NCBI GenBank assembly: GCA_037379345.1
Contig: CM074516.1
Span: 372,001 to 436,000, forward strand
DNA: 64,000 nt
Direction of reading: 5' to 3'
From: Perna viridis
Taxonomy: Eukaryota
Position 1 is the stretch's first letter; every line of letters begins with the position of its first letter. The notes under the pieces were generated by a model. It saw nothing but the letters and a program-made list of their open reading frames with translations, did no database searches and was not told the DNA's origin. Positions 4,376-64,000 of this stretch are shown here, piece by piece. The translations under genes were made by a program, and so were the position numbers.

Positions 4376-4526
4376 CAACTATCACAGGAGAACAAATCAT
4401 TATGATTTTTTTTCAATTTAAAGAAAGTATGGGGAATTTTTCTTGTTAAAGGGTACCAGTATCTTTGTATATACTTGGTGAACTTTTTTTTTAACAGCCA
4501 AACTGTAGGTGTTTGTTGTATTACAG

Positions 4527-4955
4527 GAGAAACAAAAAGCAATGACTGTGATACCAGAAATAACAGAGATCAAACGTGTAACAGTAGCTCACATCTCATC
4601 TTCTCCTCTCCGTAACTCATCACCTGACCATAAATCCAGAACCTCTAATCAATCTCGCTCCTCCTTTGATCGTTCATCAGAATCACCAGAAAAAGCACCA
4701 ACCCCACCCAGACGCACATCAGCATCACTTTCACCAAGAGGCTCTCTTACACCAACAACACCAACATCACCGCTTTCACCATCACGGATCACGATTTCAC
4801 CATTAAAAGAACCATTCTGTGACATAACTGATGAAGAGTTCCAGGAATTCTATGACAAAGTGTTGAAAGATATTGTTGTGTTTGATCATGGAGTTGTAAA
4901 CAAAGGACAACTTACAAAGTCAGAGGTCAAAGGAAGTCCACAAAGTTTTATACAG
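4527..4955 (+). CDS. DMD: Dystrophin exon E (expanded exon-38 equivalent with Ser/Pro/Thr-rich insert)
   Basis: ttacag acceptor, CAG|gtgagt donor, 429 nt, phase 0-0, open frame; PLKE motif as in human ASIPLKE. Confidence 0.88.
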
Positions 4956-5101
4956 GTGAGTTGAAAGGTTGTTTAATGCAGAAGTTATAGGTGTAAGATA
5001 CTTTTATGATGATGATTATTGTATAGAGCTTATATGTAGATAGAACGGAGCAAATTAAGTCACACTGTGACACTCTCAGCAGTTTTTTCCTCACTGCATT
5101 A

Positions 5102-15694: not shown

Positions 15695-16059
15695 TAGATC
15701 TGCTTAACTAATCTGTTTTATCAATCTTTTGTGTAAAAGTTTAGATCATTGTTTCTAAATAGAACATTTATTGTTATTACCAGGCTTTTTCTAGAACGTA
15801 ATGTTATTTTTTTTTAATGAACATTCATTTCATATTTTAGACTACAATAATCATGGTCTTATAACAGACAGATCTCTATAAAACATTTGAATGATCACTT
15901 TTTCTTTCTGTGAATTTTTTTTATTTTGTTTTTGATTGATAGTCTTATCATAGATTATAACAACTGCTATACATTTAGTCCACCAACAAATAAAAAAGTT
16001 CAAATTATGGAATAAATTGCAATATAATGCAATAACATTCTAATATTGCTTTATTACAG

Positions 16060-16437
16060 GCATATGAAGATGAATTAAGAAGAAGACAGTCCAGTTTTAC
16101 TGCATTAACAAGAAAAGGGGAACAACTCTGTTTGGAAGGTGCTAATGAAATTACCGAACCAGAACTTGATTATTTGAGCAAACGGTGGAATGATGTTGAC
16201 AAAAGATGTGTTACTTATCGTCATAAAAAACAGGATGTTAGTGTGGCTGATAAGGTCATTTCAGTTAGGAGTCAAAATGTTTCGTCACGTAAGGATTCTT
16301 CCCCTTATCCGTCTCAATTTACATTGGACTTACAAAGTCTTATGGATAAAATTTCACATATTCAAAGTTCATTGAGGTCACCAGAACTCCATGGCAACGA
16401 ATATGAAGACCTTTCACAGCAGGATGCTATTTTAAAA
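16060..16437 (+). CDS. DMD: Dystrophin exon H (fused equivalent of exons 41+42), AYEDELRRR...LSKRW...YEDLSQQDAILK
   Basis: ttattacag acceptor, AAA|gtaagt donor, 378 nt (human 183+195), phase 0-0; LSKRW and EDL motifs as in human. Confidence 0.93.
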
Positions 16438-17729
16438 GTAAGTTTTTATCTAAAGCTAATAGTGATGTTTTAAACAATAGTTGACCTTCATTAGGTTACA
16501 GATCCTTCCTGCCATGGAATAAGGTTGGGAAGAAAAGGAGAAAAATTTAAAACACTCACAGATTACTGAAATGGAAACTGAAATATTCTCTCAGAAAAAA
16601 AATGATCAACCACTTTACAATATGCAACTAATAGTTTATACATGCTCCTTCTGAAAAAAAAAAAAAAACAAAAACATCTTCTTTTGTCTAATTAGTCGTT
16701 TTGCCAACCAAAGGACTAGCAATCCTTTGAAATTATAATCAAAAACATTTCCATCAGATATTAACCATGTTCGTTACTGAGATTAGATTATTTTATAATA
16801 TTGAAGATGATATTTCCATGTAAACTTCAGTAACAAGCTGTGACAAGTTTACATTAGCACTAATTATGACTTGCCTATAAACCTTGTTTTGGCAACCATG
16901 TAGAATCTATGTTACTTTGACATTTACTGAGGGTACAATCTTGTCCTCCCATTATGTTATCTTGGTATTGTAAGTATCAGCTACTAGCTCTTTTTATAAT
17001 GATTTATTGGTCAATAATGATAGTCTGATTCCTGCTTCTATCAAGGGATAAAACAGCACATATTTATGTATTAGATTTCTATAAAATCTGATATTACCAG
17101 TGCTCAGACCTGAAGGATAAAGGAATTACTTGCTCTTAGATCTTGGTTTTTTATGAAACTTTACTGACCATCATAAACTCTACATTACATTAGTAACCAT
17201 CTGTATTGACCATCAGGAAACTCACATGACATTTGTAACCATCTTTACTGACTGTTAGGAAATTTGACACATTTTGTGATTTTTTAAATACACTACTAGT
17301 CGAGATACTTCCAAACTGAATATTGCTACAGAAGGGGTCAATACACTTCAACAATGATGATAAGTATGCTGTTTTGGTATTCACCCAAATTCAGTTATCA
17401 CAATGAAGCTTGTCATTGATTTTCAATATTCACAAAGAAAGTGTATATTATACACTGGGGATTATTAAATGTTGAAAACATTTTTTTCCCCATGGGGATT
17501 CATCTGATTTACTGATATATTGACAATAATGCCTAATTTTCTTAAATGAACAAGAACAACAAATCTAATAAATCTGTAAGCTTTTCATTAAGAATGACAC
17601 CATACTGGTAAGATATCTCACAGCAGTGCACACACTTCATAGTTCAAGCAAAAATCCATATATTAACAGCCATTTTTCCCTTAGATTTTAGAAGGCTTTT
17701 CAATTGAGTTTTTAAATTTTGATTTCTAG

Positions 17730-37706: not shown

Positions 37707-37896
37707 GCTGGCATACAATATAAAGGTATTACAGACTAACAGAAACTCCCTACAGCAGGTAGATAGTACACTTGATGGATATATCAATTGGATGAAAGGT
37801 TTGGAGAACAGTTTCGCTCGTCTTGTCTCAGAAACCAGTAAACCTGGAGTACTGGAGAATGACGAATTGTGTAAAGAATATCTGGAACAGTTTAAG
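37707..37896 (+). CDS. DMD: Dystrophin exon T (exon 55 equivalent), LAYNIKVLQ...YINWMKGLENSF...KEYLEQFK
   Basis: cctgttttag acceptor, AAG|gttggt donor, 190 nt, phase 2-0. Confidence 0.92.
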
Positions 37897-45899: not shown

Positions 45900-48800
45900 T
45901 TGTAATCAAAATATGCCACAATTTATTATATGTGATTGAAACCATTTTCTTCCATTCTGAGTTGGTGATTAAAAATGAATGTGGTACACTGATTAAATTT
46001 CAGTGATTTACTGTCATTTTATATTTTCTAAGTTTTCTACAGATTTAATTGGTAAGTGATTGCCCTTTGGCCAATTCCTGATTTAAAATACTTTTCAACT
46101 CTCTATGGTAAAATTATGATTTTAACATGCTCCCTGTTTAAAATCTCAATTTCCCATATCCAGTGAAGAAAATAATTGAATTCATTACTGAAGGAGTTGT
46201 CTCTCAAACACAAATCTGTTGAAAGCACATCACTTTCTAATTTAACTTATATGTCTCTGGAACAGAAATCTATTAATAGTACATCACGTTCTAATTTAAC
46301 TTTTCTGCTTCAAATCTAATAAAGACTAATTTTGGATGCCCCAGTCATTAAATATTCTTTGTTCTATAAACCTATCCCTCTAACCATTATTTTAAAACTC
46401 TAAAAATGGATTTAAAATTTCAAAATGTTTTTGAAAATTACTGGAAGAAAAATTCAATGAAAAAATTACTTGATTAAAGACTGAGAGGTTTCTTGTCAGT
46501 GAAATCTGCGTAGAAATCAAGTTAGATAAATGGTGTTTGGATTTGAAGGTGATCAATAAAGTTCTGAGTTTTTAACACTGGTGAATCAGAAAGTAAATGG
46601 ATTTTTTATATGCTCCTAAATGTGGTCATAAATAGCAATTAGAATAACATCTTTGGTAAAAGGTTATTTCATACAAAGAAGTCACTGAATTGTTTTTTTA
46701 TTTTATTTTTTTTTTTTTTTACATTTTTTCCTTGAAATGTACATTTAAGCTTCCATAATAATCGTTTGTTATAATTGAGCATCTATGGCTTTCTCTGTGT
46801 GATGATCATGAAACAATCCTAAATAAATGTACACATTAGGAAAACTTGTCACATTGGCTGTTATAAATGTACCCATGTGAAAAAGGGGCATTGTATTGGA
46901 AGGCTGTCGGTAGTGGATACATAGCATTTGTTGGTCATTGAATGATTAATCAGGGTGATATGTTCCTTGGGTGAAAGTGAAGATTTTTTGTATTTTATTG
47001 GATTTATTGAAAGTCGATGGAGTTTAAGTACTTAAGGAAACATGCATTGGTAGTTTCTATGCTATCTTGTTGATAATTCAGTTTCAATTGTGATGAATGC
47101 CGTAGGATATAAAATTATTGGAATCTGTCAAATGGAGCACACACATTACAAAGCAGAAATGTAAACAATTGTTTTCTGTCGCTGGTATGCTAGACGTTCT
47201 TTCTAAGAACAATTGGGAATTGGAAACTGATTCATTTAAAAATATCATACTAGTGTTATATAGTAAAGTGCAAGTATGCAAATACATGATAGCACATTAA
47301 TTTTTAGGATTGTGTTCAATTTCTAATGGAAAATGGATGAGAGGTATCCTTGCGGAAGTCAGTATTATATTTCGCCTAAAAACAGTCGTAGACTAATGTC
47401 ACCAAAACATTCACCTAGATCATTATCGCTATCACCAAGGATTAATAAACCAAGGAGACGGGTCTATTTTCAGGTGTGTAGATTCCATTAATTAAAAGGG
47501 AAATCTTGTATCACAATACTATTAGGAAAAGCTAGTGTTTAAAAAAGTTTATGTAGTATATTGAATTATAAGGGAGTAAATTTTCATATTTCTTACTGAA
47601 GACTGTGTTATGATAATCACTCATAAAGCAAATTTTTTCTGTATTCCTGTCATTTTAGAGTTTTCTGTATGTGTGAATTTGTTAGTGTTAATTTCTAAAC
47701 GAACAACTTACATCACTTGTTTTACAGTTAGAACAAAGTTGATGGTATATAGGAATCATTCGTTTTGTTCACATTTCTCCTTATGGGAATATTGTTATTG
47801 TAAAGAATACTACAGTAAAGCAGGTTTGGTCATGACTCAGTTTTTGTCTTTATTGAATGACTTGTGATGTACCATGGATCTTAATCCCGAATGGGAAGAT
47901 TCGGAATTGATTTTATATACGATGAGGACATAACTTTTTGTAGGTTTAAACTGGTCTGGAGCTGGTATGTCAGTTAACTGCTAGTAGTCCTTTATGCCTT
48001 TGTGTAATGAATAATCAGTTTCTATGTTTCTGTTTTAACAAGGGACCTTTTGATTTTTAGGTATGTTTGATTGTGTAGTATTTTTTGGCCACATTTGTAA
48101 GGGGGTTGTGATCATGCCAAAGTAATTTAATCCCACCACATTTTTTGTGCCGGTCACAAGTCAGGAATTTTTGGCCTCTGTAAGTATTGATTTGTTTTCA
48201 CTTTCAGTTTACTTTTATGTTCCTGGAGTATGTACCAATATACTTCACTGTATCTGTGTATATTACTTTTATGTTGCTGGAGTATATACCAATATACTTC
48301 ACTGTACCCATGTATAATATTTGTTTGTTTCCAGAGTATATACCAATATACTTCACTGTACCTGTGTATAATACTTTTATATTGCTGATGTATGTAGGGG
48401 CAACTATATCACTGTACCTATGTATAATCTTTTTTGGGGGCCAGCTTCATCCTGTCCAGTGGTGTGAAGGTTTCCATGTTGTTCATTGAAAACCTATGGG
48501 TGGCCTTGAGCTAAAATTTTTCATCCTGATGGAGTTGTTTTTGACATCCATTCTCATTATACGGGTACCAGAATATGTCAGTTTTTGGGTATTATAATTA
48601 CCACAACATGTAAGTTTTGGGTATAAAACCACAGGATGTCAGCTTTTTAGTACATGTATATATGTCACAGAATGTCAGTTTTTGAGTTATTTTCTAAAAC
48701 CTGATTCTAATGTCACTTCAATGTCAATGACATTGATTCTTGATGTGGAAAAATAATCAGAAATACTGTCAATGTCAAAAAATGTTTCCATCAGCACCAA

Positions 48801-55180: not shown

Positions 55181-57084
55181 ATATGTGTTGTGTGTTCCAT
55201 TTTATGTTTCCTTTGGGTTTTTTTTTCTTTCAATTGTTATATGTTAGTCTTCTTGTCATGTTTTCTTTCTCTCTCTTTTGATATTCAATGAAATTTCAAA
55301 TTGCCACTAAATAGAACACACACAATGAATATCATGAAAATCTTGAAACAGGCCTGATTGAAGTTGATCTCTGATTTTTATGCATTCTGTATTGTGTAAT
55401 TATTTTGGGTTTGGTCTTCTTTGGTGTCTGGGCTATGTAAACTTGCCTTACCCTAAAGCTTTCCAGTATAGTCACTCTATTCGATATGAAATAACCAATC
55501 TCATTCATGTAATTGAATCCTTGATGGAGTTTACACCTCCAAGATAGCAGATTGTGAATTAAATGTGAAGCCAACCTTGCCTGCAAGATTTAGTTTATCA
55601 CGGGCCAAGTTCATGTTTGGGTCATCAGTGTTATTAAATATCATTATTAAGATCAAAGGCAAATATCCATCCTGACAAACATTCTGAAGACAGTAATTTG
55701 CATGAAATTATGGGATCTTGACAGCTGTGTTTGCATTGGAAAGTCAGAATATCTGGAATTGTTGTCAGTATTGTGATTCTAAATACTCCATCACAGCATT
55801 TTGTCCCTCAGAAAACATTTATTACATCTTTTCTCTTTAATGTTGGTCTTCTATATCCAGTACTTTTTGTCCCAGACGAAGGCCAACCGTTTGGGCTTAT
55901 AATTCTGTTTTATTTAGTTTTATTTGTATTTAGTTCACTTAAAATTGTTCACGTATTTATTATTTTTATTTCCAAGGAACAACCACCTATACCAATATCT
56001 ATGTTTCTGCTATATAAGAGTTGGCCGTACCAACAATTTTAATATTCGGCCTTTTCTATGTTTGCCAGACAAACAAATTATTCTAACCATTGGCCTTCAA
56101 TGTTTAATGTAAGTTTCTCAGTTTTCTCCCCAATTAGGTTCAATTAAAACTTCAAGTAAGATAGATAATTTAAGGGATGGTGGAACGGATTATTTGGACA
56201 AAATTTATTCAACTTTAGTAGCTACTTAACTGAATTGAAATACATTTTGAACATGTTAATGCTCTGGTAGTCCAATGAACTCCTTGAAGATAAGATATGA
56301 TACACAGCTGAACACTGCAATAGCAAGTTAAAAGAAAAGTTTCTGAAATATGAAGTGGACTGCAGTTGACTGGTTCTATATGAAGATATTTTTATGACAA
56401 TCATGCCATTGTCACATCAATCACATCATTATTGATTTATCCATAAATATTTTCTGCTCTTTTCATCATGACTAAACTTAATTACAGGCACAATGCAATT
56501 TAAAACAGTTACTACAATTGCAAATTTTATCATCAGTTAATTTTTACACTTTCCTTTCTTAATCAAAGCTATAAAGATTGAGTTTTTACATATAACTCTG
56601 TGTTCTATAAAATTCTAAAGAATAGGAATTTTATTTTGATGTTAAGTTTTGATAAAAAGCCAAACACTGAAATTTACTTTGATATTAAAGCATTTTGAGG
56701 ATCCACAACCTAATCTCCCCTTCTGTTATTGCATGGTACAATCCACTTTTACTATTATGATAGTAATGTACATTTTCTCAATGAAATGGTCTATGATTTT
56801 TTTACAACTGTCAAAACAAGGCTAATTGGATTCATCCAGTAGGTATTTCATGTGTGTACCTTTGGATTAAAGTGATGAACTGTTCAAGTTCTCAACAAAA
56901 ACAACAATCTTTTTCCAAATGTTTTTGGTGAGAAATTGACATGAGTTTGGAATGTTGATTGAAAATTACAAAACATGGTATAAAGAACTTTTATCATATT
57001 GTTGGATTATTTCATTGAAAAATTGTACATCTCCAAATAATTCTGGCCGGTGCGAAGAAAATTTCGGTGGAATATTGTCCTCAA

Positions 57085-57135
57085 ATGTTGGTTTTATCTT
57101 TGAACCTCCGAAACCTACTTAATTACTTTGAGAAG
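57085..57135 (+). CDS. Putative Dp116-like alternative first exon, MLVLSLNLRNLLNYFEK
   Basis: ATG-initiated 17 codons ending at a consensus AAG|gtaagt donor in phase 0, in frame with exon U. Confidence 0.45.
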
Positions 57136-58878
57136 GTAAGTCAATTGTTAACATTGCTTGTCTCTATAGTAAGGTATCATATTGAACAGTAAAATTGGTC
57201 CTATTTCATTTCTTCCCATTTTCCAGGAGAATGAAAAACTAATATGAATAGAAAATACTCAGTGGTTGTCCATGGTTACTGATAGGTGTTGATATTTACT
57301 GCTGACCAAATTTAACCATAAACAAACATTTATTTCTTTTCTTTTGAACATCAGACTCATCTTTATTAGTCCCCTACCAGCTTTTGCCGAAGGGGACTTT
57401 AAATTCACCGAATTTTGTCTGAGTTGTGGCCTTTGAATTTACCGAAATTTAAGTTTTCTGCACTTTTTTCTTGGTACTGTATTTGAGTCTACCTTGATGA
57501 GTTACAGATCAAGTTAACATTTTTTTCTGGTTTGCTGATATTTTCCAACTTTCAGTTTTACAGGCTATACCAAAATTTCAGTTTTACACAGTTTTTTCTA
57601 AAGACTTAAGATATTGAGTTGTTTTTTTTTGACAAATCAATCAACCTTTATTTGAAACCTAAGGCTACAATTAGGTACAGAATAATGGAAAGTTATCAGG
57701 AAGTAACATGACGCAAAGAGAATGCAAAATAACAAGAAATGTCCCTGATAATTATTTCGAAAACTTCAACGACGTCTGAAAATATATCAAAGAGGATTGG
57801 AAGTACATATAATCTTTACTGAATGAGAACCTCACAATGTAATCAATGTCTTCCCTTTTACTTTTGTCCCAGACTCAGCAATAAGAAAATGCCAGAATTT
57901 TATTTTAAAGAATAAATGCATTTATGGTTCAAAACACACATGAATAATTAATTTATTCATTTTAATGATAAATTTTATTTCTAATATATAAGAATATTTA
58001 AGGATCTCTGCTGATGCATGTTCTGTTTTATTTACAATTAAACCTATTACTCGTCAAAAAGAAACGCTGTGCTTACTTTTAGGTAATGCCTACTCTATTT
58101 ACTCCATGCCAAGATACTCTTATGTAAAATAAAAATCAGTTGATTTTGCATTTGGTCTGGAAAAAAAACTCTTCCTATTTGAGCTTTACTATAGCCTTCA
58201 ACCCCCTATTCCTATTTGAGCTTTACTATAGCCTTCAACCGCCTACCTTGTACAAATAAACCACATTATTAACTTCATTACTACATGTTGTACCTTCATT
58301 TAGAATGAAATTGATGGCTTATATCAAATTCACCATCAATCTTAAATACATTATTTATATATATATATATGTAATTTATTAACATGACCATGAACTAAAT
58401 ATTAATATGTGCCTTCAATTAATCCAATTTTCTTTAATGGATGTAGATTTTGTGTGATTACCTAGTTCAGCTGTTCTTGGCTGTGATACTGTGCCTCATC
58501 AACGGTTCTTTTGTTTTACACTGAAACTAGAATTTGTAAATTACATCTTCTTTGAAAGGTTCTGACCATATAAGGAATTTTTATTTAATTGCAGTTGCAG
58601 GATTTATTGCATCCTTTTGTTGATATATACAGAGCTGTTTGTGTTGTATGATTAAGTTCCACTTAGAGTAAGGGCCAAAATTTATGTTGATAAAATAAAT
58701 TATACATATTCAGAAACATAAAGGGGGTGATGAAACTTGTAAAAAGGAGTATTGTTTTGTAATCTTCTCACCCCCTGTAATGACCTCTGTCATCTGCCTG
58801 TATGTGTATGTCAGTTATTCATCTGTTAGTGTTTGTCAGTTATTCATATGTCAGTGTCAGTCAGTGTTTGTCATCTGA

Positions 58879-59190
58879 ATACGGAAAACCTGACTGCAAA
58901 CCAGTGGTGCACCGTGTTTGGAAAGATGCTACGTTCCTCACACGTTAAAAAACCCTGCTGTGGTATTCAATGGGAGTGGGAACCTTTGCACTCCACCATA
59001 GGAGGCTAAATTGCCCAACCCTACCCATCCCTCTTTTAGGAGTGGCAATCAAAATGTGTTGACCCTTTTATCCTTGTGTCCCATCTTTTTTTTTTCATTT
59101 CATCATCATTTATGTGCATTTTATCATCCATTTCATGTTCATCACCTGAAATATAGCTGCTCGGACGTTAATCCCCAACAATCAATCAGT
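58879..59190 (+). mobile_element. SINE-like 3' fragment inserted in a minisatellite
   Basis: GC-richer segment ending ggacgttaatccccaacaatcaatca (CAAT tail); flanked on both sides by the same gtcagtcagtgtttgacagttatt repeat. Confidence 0.5.
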
Positions 59191-59532
59191 CAATTATTCA
59201 TCTGTCTGTATGTCTGTGTCAGTCAGTGTTTGACAGTTATTTATCAGTCTGTAGTTCAGTGTCATTCAGTGTTTGACAGTTATTTATCAGCCTGTAGTTC
59301 AGTGTCAGTCAGTGTTTGACAGTTATTCATCTGTCTGTATGTCTGCGTAAGTCAGTGTTTGACAGTTATTTATCAGTCTGTATATCTATGTCAGTCAGTG
59401 TTTGACAGTTATTTATCAGTCTGTATGTCTGTGTCAGTCCATGTTTGACAGTTATTCATCTGTCTGTATGTCTGTGTCAGTCATTGTTTGACAGTTATTT
59501 ATCAGTCTGTATATCTGTGTCAGTCAGTGTTT
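59190..59532. repeat. ~43-bp minisatellite (continues from 58790-58878)
   Basis: gtcagtcagtgtttgacagttatttatcagtctgtatgtctgt units. Confidence 0.9.
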
Positions 59533-62132
59533 AATAGAAGTGTGGAGAAACCCTTAACAGTTTGAATACACAGGAAAAATATTATAGTTTATACTTGATT
59601 TTCACATGAGTTTCATCTGCATTGAGTAAATCAGTTTTGTGACTGAGTAAATCAGTTTTGTGACTGAGTTCATGTGAAGTTCAAGTGAAGCAATCCTTTT
59701 TATGAAAACCACCTGAAAATTACTGTGAAACTTTTGAATTTTATAAGAATAACTTGTATAGCATCTGAGTTGTAAAATCTTACCATCTCTGAATGAGAGC
59801 AGTCATAATGTTTGGGGTTTTCTTACTACTCTTTTACTTCATCATATTAGTGAAAATATTTTTACAGTAAATATTTGAACATATAGAAATGTCATGGCTT
59901 TAGGTAACTTTCTGTTTTAGCTGAAATCATCAAGTCTCCATTGAGATGATTCAGCTCTTCGATCCTACTTATGTCTGACTATCAATGGAATTATTGAATT
60001 GATTCAATTTACTGGTACATTTCTAAGTCTTGTTCTATATGGCTTGGAGTTCAGTAATACACCTGGTACTTTCTGTAAATATTGAGGTTTAAATATTTAG
60101 AAAGGGGGTTTTAGATTTTCATTGTTTAAAGTTTCCCTTTAGAAAATTGTTAAAAGTGCTAAAGGTTGAAGCACTACAATACTTGTTGTTGAGGTCTATA
60201 ATGATATTACAGTAATATATGTTAGGAATTCAAGAACTTATAAACATACAATCAAAACATCCAATAGAAGTAAATTAAATCGTAGATTAATGTCCAAAAT
60301 TACTGGATATCACAACATAATAATTATAATAAATCAAGGTATATAGAACGGTTCATTCTACCAGCTATAGAAAAAGCTCTGTCCACCCTGGCTGTAAGAT
60401 ATTTCTGAAATGAGCCATACAATGTATAATTTGTTTTTATTTCATGCAATGAGAAATTGTTAGAATGCAGTTTGTTTTGGCATCAGCAGATAATCATTAG
60501 AGCATATGTTTTATATCTGGTTAATAGGTGGGGGTGCTTTCTTTGTTGTTAATCACAATGTTGTGTACAGATGTAGGATCTTGATTGATCATTTCAACAG
60601 AGGCTACATATTATCTGTGACTTGAAACATATTGTGATCTATACCTAGTGAGTACTTTTGTTAAAAGAATAAGGTGACAATTGTATCTTTGGTATGGATC
60701 ATGGATGGTGGTTAAGTGCTTGTTTTTTTTTTTCATTGAGTTGAGCAAATAAAATTTCTGACTATTTACATGTGGCATGAACTTCATGTTAGTGGAAAGC
60801 GGAGTTCAAACCTTCACATGCAAATCATGTTAAAGTCTTGTGAATTACCTGTTACTCAAAATTCACATTAATTTCATGTGAACCTTTTTTGCCTGTGTTT
60901 GTCTGTATCGATATGATAGAAAAGAATTCAGAGGCTTATATGTCATCTTGAATTATTTGTAAAAACACTTAAGGTCAAAGGTAAAGGTCATAGTTTGAAA
61001 CCAGTGTACATCTATTTATAAACTTACCATAAGATTGAAGTACATGTATAGATAATTATGGTAGACATATTGTTATGTTTAATGTTTTCATTTTCTTAAA
61101 AAAAAATAACTCTTTATTTGAAATAGCTTGAACTTTTGAACTTTTTAATTGAATGCATCTAATTGCAGATTACAACATGGGTGGGCTGTGTGTTCAGCAA
61201 CCATTGATTAATAGTGATAAAACTGTAGTATTTTAACAAAAGTACAAGATTTATTGCTCTAGGTTATAACTAAGATATGAAAGGTTTGCCCTTTGTTTTA
61301 AAAAGTCTGGTCTTTGAAGTAATGTAATGAAGTAATGTAATGGATTGATATGCTATCAGAATTAGGGGGAATATGACTGTATAAAGGTTATGTTTCTCGG
61401 ACAACCCTAGTGGTACTGACTGGATGTCAACACCCTGTATGCCTAGTGCCTCATATTACATGTTATTTAGAGGTAATTATACATGTAGTTGACACATTAA
61501 TTACAGAAGGTCATGTACATGTAGTGAGAAAATGGACACTAATGCATAAATAAGTAGTGATTAATGTCACTCTAATGTCAAACAAATCTGTCATTAACAT
61601 GCAAATTTAGACATTTTTATAAAGGGATACATAGTTGATTTTCTCTAATGCTTGAAAAATAACCTGCCTCCCTTACCTCAGAGATCCATATATAGCCAGA
61701 ATTGACCAGTTATTTATGAGTTGATAAAATTCCAATTAAATGGTACAAATGGGTAACAATGTAATTATCTCTCATAAAGAATGTGGAGGATAAGATTTTG
61801 TAGTGATAATTGATAGCTGGACTATTAATTAAATTCCATAATTTTGTTCTGGGGAATTTATCAGATATATTATTGACTCAATGTGTGAGAATTGACATCT
61901 CAAATTCTTTAAGTCAATATAAAGTCATGAGTGGTAAAATTAAAGGAAATAATGAATACTGGTAAGAAAACATCATTCTATACTGATAAAAAAATGATTC
62001 TGTTCTATTTTTAAGTTATTTTCCTGAGCTCTATGAGTTGGAATATACATTAGCCCTCGTGTTCATTGACTTGTTCACCATTTGTCCATCCTTGTGTCAC
62101 ATTCATAGGTTTCTGGATGATAATTAAAGAAC

Positions 62133-62310
62133 CAGTGGCTGTGGCGGATCCAGGGGGAGGGGGGCTGGCACCCCTCCTTTTTATTGGAAAATTTCTCATT
62201 TTCATGTGTAAAATTGCCAAAAATGGTAAACAATGTCCTAGCACCCCCTTTTTCTGAGGAACCCTGGCTGGAACCATTTTTTCAAAATGACTGGATCCGC
62301 CCCAGCCCTG
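62133..62310. mobile_element. Short hAT-like MITE
   Basis: GGCGGATCCAG (62143-62153) and CTGGATCCGCC (62291-62301), with outer CAG...CTG ends. Confidence 0.7.
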
Positions 62311-62569
62311 AAATACAATAATATGACAAAATGACTTAACATAAGTTTCAGTAGTCTGCTTGCTACAAGTGTTGGAGATAAAAGGTTTGATCCCTGCCTT
62401 AGTCACACTGATGATTTTCTGCTTGTCACTTCTTCTCTATAAAGCAAGCAATATATTATTAAGAGATAGAGTGATGACATGTTAGTTTGGAGTTTAAATC
62501 CAGATCAGTCAGTGTAATAAACAGGGTCTGTTAGCCATGAAGCATTATGAGTCTTTCTTTTCATTATAG

Positions 62570-62739
62570 GACCTTCAAGCTGAAGTTGATGCTAACAAAG
62601 GAACTTATGATTCATTGAACACGGCCGGTAATCAGCTGACAAGAACCATGGTTGCTGCAGATGCTCAGCGATTACAGAAAAGACTTGAAGAGATGAATCA
62701 ACGTTGGATCAATCTAATGACCAAATCAATGGAAATCAG
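62570..62739 (+). CDS. DMD: Dystrophin exon U (exon 56 equivalent), DLQAEVDANKGTYDSLN...LQKRLEEMNQRWINLMTKSMEIR
   Basis: ctttcttttcattatag acceptor, CAG|gtactt donor, 170 nt, phase 0-2. Confidence 0.95.
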
Positions 62740-63460
62740 GTACTTGTACTGTAGACAATTTGTACTTTATTGGAAAAAGATGTGTATTTATAAGTTCTAA
62801 TCTTGAAAAGCAGCTTTTCCCTTTATTATGTGAGTGGATGCTAAAATAAGACTTTTCTCCCTTTTTGTGAGTGAATGCTAAAATCAGGAGTATTCTGTTA
62901 GTAAATGACAAAAACTTGGAGGGACTTGTGGTTTAATTATAGTTATCTTGAGAAAACATTTAGTATTAAGTGTTTTCAAAGGATACAATTCTAGATATTT
63001 TAATCTCCAAAACTTAAATTTATCAACATATTTCTGTCTTTACAACCCAAACTTCCAAACCTATGTACACAGATATAGGTAGGTGTCTCTTTATCTACCC
63101 TCATGAAGTAACGTCATATTTTCAAGGATTAATTCATGATCACATAATTTTCATGTCTGGGAATTAATTAGTGTGAACATTATCAAGGTGTCACCTTCCC
63201 AGTAATTATCAAGGCAGAGATAATAAGGATTTATTTGGGAACATTAAGTTTTATACAATACAAACTGAGCTCTCATTAGCTATGGTTTATATTGTGTTTT
63301 TTTCCTTATGTAACTGTGCTTGGGATTGCTATTAAAGTCCTTAGTAGAGGGATATTTTTGTTTTTTTTATTGTCTTTTGCAAAATGGAAAATTAGTTTGT
63401 TGAAAAGGATTAGATTCGTCTCAGTGATTCTAAACCACTGAAGTAATAATTCTGTGAGAA

Positions 63461-63753
63461 ATGAGAGTAATAGCATTAGTCGGACATCAGGATGATACCC
63501 AAAATGGGAATAATCATAATTGCCCTAGTGATGGAAAGTCTTCATGTGAATGTACAACAATCCAAAGTGTTGATAAATGTTCTGTTTATGGGGAACCAGA
63601 TTATATCAATATATATGGCCATAGAAGGACTCTTTCTGAGCCAGAGTTATTTGTGGCTGTCGTTGGGCAGTACTCTAATAAGACAACAAGTGTTGAACAT
63701 TTGAATAAGTGTTATAGTCTTTCACCAAAGAAGAAGAAGAAAAAAGTTCATTG
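63461..63753 (+). CDS. Putative alternative first coding exon of a short dystrophin isoform (unique 98-aa N-terminus)
   Basis: ATG preceded by an in-frame TGA (63455); 97 non-repetitive open codons; ends CAT TG|gtaggc in phase 2, the same phase as the host intron; motif-rich peptide. Confidence 0.65.
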
Positions 63754-64000
63754 GTAGGCTGACTAATAGTAAACTTAGATCTTTGGACAATATTTTAATA
63801 GATGCTTCAAATCTTTTGGTTTCCTTGTTTGGTTTTCATATTACCGTAAAGAGTGACTCTGTCATCGTCGTCCACTTTTCATGCAATAACTTGAATATTA
63901 TTTGGTTGATAATTATAAAAAGATAATATTTAATTAGAATGTTCCAAACCACAAAAGAAAGGTTAGTATTGATTTTGGGGTTTATGACCCAAACTGTTTT

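Follow-up and report, generated by a model that had tools for sequence, protein, structure and literature searches.

A candidate Dp116-like alternative first exon in the intron-55 equivalent of the Perna viridis dystrophin gene

Short dystrophins and utrophins starting before exon 56

Dp116 is a short dystrophin of vertebrates which is expressed in Schwann cells and which uses an alternative start in intron 55. Exon S1 and the Dp118 extension have been described for this form, with S1 encoding 10 or 24 basic residues and being located 755 bp before exon 56, to which human Dp116 is joined at residue 2740 (PMC5664101). The same paper calls the role of the unique N-termini of the Dp116 type unclear. 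In the utrophin family, G-utrophin (Up113) has the same join point, with a first exon whose peptide is strongly helical (PMC1790709). Two further short isoforms, Dp205 in Drosophila and SuDp98 in the sea urchin, also start in the orthologous intron (PMC1790709), and a list of fly isoforms is given in PMC2840664.

The Dp116 and G-utrophin promoters were followed across vertebrates in PMC1790709, where an ancient promoter in this intron was argued from position alone, by way of SuDp98 and Dp205; molluscs are mentioned there once, in another context. A literature search that had most subscription journals outside its reach yielded neither a paper on a short dystrophin of molluscs nor one on a 17-residue first exon in protostomes. 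The kind of isoform is already known, and for the first-exon peptide presented here no description was found.

The dystrophin locus of Perna viridis and the candidate exon

The window, which is the whole stretch of 64,000 nucleotides analysed, covers the middle of a dystrophin gene, which is encoded on its plus strand. In a comparison by similarity, mollusc references reached 983-1,087 bits, an annelid 995 and other references 777-925, which is in favour of a mollusc. The canonical upstream exon, equivalent to exon 55, was located at 37707-37896 by tblastn of P0002 and P0303 and by its border sequences. P0303 is a full-length bivalve dystrophin from Potamilus, and its consecutive residues 2388 and 2389 map to 37896 and 62570, thereby flanking an intron of 24,673 nt (37897-62569, plus strand) in which this mapping identified no canonical exon. 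The intron is the largest gap of the P0303 exon map. The next largest gap, of 19.3 kb, contains more exon-like open frames, and the mapped gaps 3' of the following exon are at most 7.9 kb. Two long open frames of the rod region, 4509-4961 (rich in Ser, Pro and Arg) and 16036-16470, lie in the 19-kb gap, unmatched by P0303; they are possible lineage-specific rod insertions.

The following exon, designated exon U, comprises the 170 nt of 62570-62739 on the plus strand and is the equivalent of DMD exon 56. It starts in phase 0 with DLQAEV, encodes the remainder of helix B and helix C of a spectrin repeat (positions 45-95 of 105 in the Pfam Spectrin model), has its best match in residues 2733-2789 of the solved dystrophin chain 9c3c_D and is covered by RNA reads. 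The first residue of exon U aligns with the one that directly follows exon 1 in vertebrate Dp116, and the parallel to Dp116 drawn by the first-pass annotation thus holds for the join point, which is at the same codon boundary (PMC5664101). The P0303 mapping, the 9c3c_D match and the alignment of the Dp116 junction together identify 37897-62569 as the intron-55 equivalent. Exon U gave two matches in the 723-Mb genome, and a second dystrophin gene was rejected, since both are within this same gene. Exons for the last repeats, two of them full, and for the WW, EF-hand, ZZ and C-terminal coiled-coil regions follow downstream within the next 46 kb, which is the domain content of the Dp116 type.

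The candidate exon is located in this intron, between the exon-55 and exon-56 equivalents, as in Dp116-type genes. As described in the first-pass annotation, a 17-codon peptide led by an ATG ends at a phase-0 donor: the ATG is at 57085-57087, the 51 nt of 57085-57135 (plus strand) encode MLVLSLNLRNLLNYFEK, and the donor GTAAGT (AAG/GTAAGT) follows at 57136-57141. It would be a unique coding first exon, in frame with exon 56, and the predicted first intron of the short isoform would extend over 5,434 nt (57136-62569, plus strand), from this donor to the exon U acceptor TTTTCATTATAG. Nothing was found by Pfam in the peptide's own frame. The region 56900-57350 has itself as the single match in the genome, in a search that gives lower bounds, and an origin of the candidate from a repeat was rejected on the basis of this one match. 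Dispersed repeats are present at 57340-57560, 58850-59190, 62160-62280 and 63740-64000, where they attract many diverged RNA reads from other loci, and tandem arrays occur at about 52.8-55.2 kb and elsewhere in the window.

Scored by a simple weight matrix built on textbook frequencies, the donor at 57136 reaches 7.81, the highest value among the 1767 plus-strand GT sites of the intron, whereas the canonical donors on either side score 1.99 and 2.41. On the minus strand, which served as a control, a donor scoring 7.66 is present, and an in-frame ATG precedes two of nine good donors there and four of seven on the plus strand. The occurrence of good donors with in-frame ATGs on both strands is what would be expected if an ATG, a short frame and a donor had come together by chance in an AT-rich intron; taken alone, these three elements are barely above chance, and the case for the exon rests on conservation.

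The upstream sequence had been annotated as unique and AT-rich. Uniqueness agrees with the single genome match, but the sequence is not wholly featureless, since five ATGs are present in the region 56860-57084 (plus strand), possibly a 5' UTR as delimited by an RNA-run contig described below and by scans for ATGs and acceptors. No good acceptor was found in this region by the acceptor scan. An upstream open frame of 56 codons at 56952-57122 is out of frame and overlaps the ATG at 57085; four short upstream open frames were also observed, and one TATA-like hexamer, without proven meaning, is located at 56606. The five upstream ATGs suggest either a start site near the ATG at 57085 or a damped translation, and translation would be hindered by them if the transcript began before 56975. 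Upstream ATGs are also in agreement with a coding exon which is real and not the first one, being preceded by an untranslated exon or used as a cassette between exon 55 and exon U. A phase-0 AG at 57056-57057 in the open frame could be the acceptor of such an exon; however, it has no pyrimidine tract (pyrimidine fraction 0.47), and the RNA-run contig is unspliced across 56860-57110.

RNA coverage was analysed in six distinct runs of P. viridis, of which four (X1, X5, X6 and X7) were mapped on 55300-64000 and four (X1, X6, X8 and X9) on 56150-58330. The first-pass annotation had joined the peptide to exon U before DLQAEV and had named junction reads from 57135 to 62570 as the check; the frame and the start of exon U fit this join, but the splice was absent from the RNA of the six runs, with no such joint in X1, X5, X6 and X7 and no loose read end at 57135 in X1, X6, X8 and X9. 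In three raw RNA runs, sense reads were absent from the candidate exon, while exon U had a sense depth of about 14-, 31- and 22-fold. This sets a rough ceiling of <5-9% on the share of the candidate exon in those three samples, for which tissues are unlabelled and 19-25% of each run was read.

In X1, which is an RNA run by the guess of the tool, a single contig of 251 nt (56860-57110, depth 2.4, without mismatches) spans the ATG together with 225 nt in front of it and ends 25 nt before the donor, without proof of a splice. At 97% likeness, no other long piece was obtained in 56150-58330, and this contig could be derived from pre-mRNA or DNA. X1 has no depth in 16 of the 30 bins of 55300-64000, and a contig of 14,269 nt runs through exon U. 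Further depth in X1 at 56464-56754 and 57628-58209 was lost once 97% likeness was required and was set aside as coming from diverged or repeat sequence, and depth in X6 at 57046-57336 was rejected as an exon signal, with the reads being intronic and starting from about 57200.

The absence of the junction from the six runs, and of exon reads from the three raw runs, would also be explained by an ancestral first exon that is still recognisable and out of use in P. viridis. This explanation is quite improbable. The ATG, the open frame, the length, the apolar pattern of the peptide and the near-consensus donor are all intact, and the separation of bivalves and gastropods is not recent, so that an exon of 51 nt out of use should have decayed in this time. 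Human Dp116 is likewise confined to few tissues (PMC5664101). Expression of the P. viridis exon is likely tissue-restricted or low.

Conservation of the peptide in snails, horseshoe crab and hexapods

In a set of 407 proteins, the start of exon 56 was identified in register in 216, and in 82 of these the sequence in front is not that of exon 55; the 82 contain redundant isoforms and open frames reading through introns, and the fish protein P0238 was left out, being below the cut-off. The best four of the 82 by ungapped score are Bradybaena P0301 (37), Candidula P0043 (37), Bulinus P0008 (35) and Tachypleus P0062 (26), and all four have a Met at position -17. The snail proteins start with MIQLTANIWKLLRHFEN in P0008 and with MIELTFVIKNLLRHFEH in P0043 and P0301; each has exactly 17 residues before the exon-56 sequence, with seven of the 17 being identical to the candidate. 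In P0062, a RefSeq isoform, the Met at -17 lies inside a start of 32 residues, and again seven of 17 residues are identical. The snail and horseshoe-crab models KAH9509038.1, CAG5122950.1, BFZ24844.1 and XP_076307918.1 have the same type of peptide, length and junction. All homologues are automatic gene models known from the protein only; the exon has no name or function in them, and the literature search gave no paper dealing with them.

The next six proteins, with scores of 13-17, are hexapod models which carry a segment EDARF...FE[KE] at the end, with a version of 11 residues in three bee isoforms. These hexapod homologues run 100-300 residues further upstream and have no Met at -17, which is in favour of a real coding exon that is not the first. 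In contrast, exactly this Met starts the three snail models, and in none of the 216 proteins with an exon-56 start is the peptide found behind exon 55. An exon that is not the first is therefore considered unlikely. For the present analysis, a class of protostome 17-residue helix exons was defined by apolar residues at positions 1, 2, 4, 8, 11, 12 and 15 and a Glu at position 16, with the end at the exon-56 junction, and the candidate has all of these features.

Eleven mollusc models in the database lack exon 55 in front, and three of them have the 17-residue peptide. Another start, common to land and freshwater snails, is present in P0009, P0012 and P0032, while P0013, P0014 and P0045 have other starts and P0010 and P0044 have none or only a Met. 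Among the 407 proteins, the peptide was not detected in any model from a bivalve, cephalopod, chiton, limpet or annelid; for the bivalves, the start is a different one in Mya P0014 and lies within exon 56 in Sinanodonta P0046, while Potamilus P0303 is full length. A HMMER search over 50% representatives gave no further 17-residue homologue and yielded the G-utrophin-like P0238. When other alternative N-termini were compared to the intron by tblastn, only short matches at the level of chance were obtained besides the candidate.

The candidate was ranked among all 49,246 six-frame windows of 17 codons in the intron. It is first against the two snail peptides (36, the next window having 25) and first against five arthropod references (17.4 vs 15.4), third against four hexapods and fifth against Tachypleus alone. 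Among the 954 stop-free windows which end at a GT, it ranks first for the snail, arthropod, Tachypleus and hexapod references alike. Shuffles with the Met fixed gave p values of 8e-5 and 4e-5 for the snails, 8.5e-4 for Tachypleus and 0.002-0.01 for the hexapods. The reference sets were picked after the scores had been seen, and after correction for about 80 comparisons the snail match is near p 0.005 while the single arthropod matches are marginal, so that the link to arthropods is carried by the agreement of several lineages in register. When a profile was moved along the 120 residues upstream, its best position was precisely the junction in all four hexapod proteins (p <=0.001).

For a chance origin, it can be added that a degenerate exon pattern gave two matches in metagenomes; both were rejected as chance matches, having no dystrophin exon nearby and, in one case, a stop. 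However, the first rank against both the snail and the arthropod references, the identical length and register in three snail models and the Met at -17 in the top four of the 82 make a chance origin highly improbable. Past the junction, the proteins carrying the peptide and those carrying exon 55 are identical over 938 of 938 residues in Bradybaena, 945 of 945 in Tachypleus and 975 of 975 in a moth pair from Logan contigs. Such identity is the pattern given by alternative starts of a single gene, and the peptide end and exon 55 are the two alternatives in these snail, horseshoe-crab and moth proteins. Together with the ranks among the intron windows, it largely refutes the chance reading.

On this basis, the alternative first exon is probably real and protostome-wide, and it appears to date from the common ancestor of molluscs and arthropods. 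The first-pass assignment to the intron-55 equivalent of an alternative first exon that is Dp116-like is supported by the conservation in register in the snail and horseshoe-crab gene models. It had left open whether the exon is ancestral or convergent: for protostomes, the exon appears to be ancestral, but no kinship to exon S1 of Dp116 is detectable in its sequence. Against the S1 peptides, the candidate scores 3-6 and ranks 493 of 49,246 and 23 of 954, with p 0.22 in the profile slide. Compared to the basic S1 peptide close to exon 56, the P. viridis exon encodes 17 amphipathic residues at a distance of 5.4 kb; the alternative start in intron 55, the short coding first exon, the join point and the predicted domain content are shared.

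G-utrophin has the same join point, and in the fish model P0238 a helix led by a Met resembles the candidate in its apolar pattern. However, the G-utrophin first exon comprises 45-48 residues, its helix ends 16 residues before the junction, and the match of this one fish sequence to the candidate (shuffle p 0.057, rank 60 of 49,246 and first of 954) is not significant and is outside the junction register. SuDp98 is unlike the candidate in its use of an internal start. Certain insect exon ends, which we take to be of the Dp205 type from the size of P0147 and from the fly isoform list of PMC2840664, have an FE-like motif at the end, in register. These exons encode hundreds of residues and match weakly (rank 134 of 49,246 and fifth of 954; shuffle p 0.06-0.63 over five references), and the candidate, with only 17 residues, does not have the long N-terminus ending in an LF.EILD.QERF-like motif that characterises them. 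A second insect exon type, ending in LLAE...FEK, fits the mollusc exon better than the Dp205 type does (third of 49,246 and first of 954).

Predicted product and further starts in the intron

The region 57085-57141 is likely to be an alternative first exon which is spliced to exon U and gives rise to a short, Dp116-like dystrophin, with a new start predicted to form an amphipathic helix continuing helix B. An internal promoter, putatively located upstream of 57085, would drive a transcript of this exon and exons 56 onward, leaving out the actin-binding domain and the greater part of the rod. The predicted product would comprise about 950-1,100 residues (955-1,091 in the homologous models), with a partial repeat, two full repeats, WW, EF-hand, ZZ and coiled-coil regions. 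By analogy to Dp116, it may act as a scaffold at the membrane, on dystroglycan, syntrophin and dystrobrevin, with no link to actin.

The peptide would take the place of the start of helix B, which exon 55 supplies in the long form. Residues 7-78 of P0008 were matched by Pfam to positions 35-104 of the Spectrin model, with the snail peptide portion at positions 35-44, which are the start of helix B. AlphaFold2 predicted residues 2-43 of this snail protein as one helix at moderate confidence (pLDDT about 65-73). For the candidate, a hydrophobic moment of 0.39 at 148 degrees was calculated, compared to 135 degrees for the start of exon U, and the moment of the peptide is aligned with that of the following residues both in the window and in three homologues with a Met at -17. 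In the model considered most likely, the conserved apolar face (positions 1, 2, 4, 8, 11, 12 and 15) lies against helix C, stabilising the truncated repeat, which lacks helix A; alternatively, this face would bind a partner or the membrane. A homodimer prediction for residues 1-155 of P0008, made without use of an alignment, gave a score of 0.00 and speaks neither for nor against a dimer.

Capping of the cut spectrin repeat by the peptide is suggested as a structural reason for the exon. The conservation of the peptide between molluscs and arthropods is direct sequence evidence for a short dystrophin with a defined N-terminal helix in the protostome ancestor, and in invertebrate models the exon can be used for an isoform-specific primer or epitope and as a target for knock-out; the known roles of dystrophin are unchanged by the finding. 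It is doubtful, but worth stating, that the intron-55 start is one ancient bilaterian module, in which the 17-residue helix exon of molluscs, chelicerates and hexapods would be ancestral to the first exon of G-utrophin, with the helix targeting neuronal short dystrophins to a partner or the membrane. If so, this intron would have two conserved starts in molluscs, at 57085 and 47333, and Dp116-type N-termini could be tested in the large identified neurons of molluscs.

The second of these is a candidate alternative first exon of 47 codons at 47333-47473 (plus strand), ATG-led and rich in Ser-Pro and basic residues. Its phase-0 donor CAG/GTGTGT at 47474, by which the feature spans to 47479, has the second-best donor score, and the sequence has one genome match. 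In a post hoc comparison, the last 17 codons rank first of 954 in register against the end of the other snail first exon, and second of 1,480 and second of 1,948 at shorter lengths; against five other references the ranks are 25 or worse. The RNA mapping covered 55300-64000 and 56150-58330, which are both downstream of this site. The chances that 47333-47473 is a second alternative first exon are about even.

The other snail start, found in P0009, P0012 and P0032, comprises 45-51 residues before exon 56 and is common to Biomphalaria and Bradybaena; in Bradybaena, the two start types are on two different dystrophin genes. The Aplysia RefSeq isoforms P0048-P0052 and P0322-P0326 all start shortly before the WW domain, which reflects either a Dp71-like start or a scaffold break. 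Four mirid-bug proteins (P0366, P0368, P0373 and P0375) have PRFK before exon 56, as in the vertebrate Dp118 extension (P0099), with local scores of 24-27, which may be due to chance. Unrelated starts at the same junction were observed in P0047, P0060, P0309, P0135, P0136, P0014 and P0045, which derive from nemertean, sea urchin, decapod, clam and caenogastropod. This suggests a repeated gain of first exons in the intron, with some of these starts maybe being artefacts of prediction.
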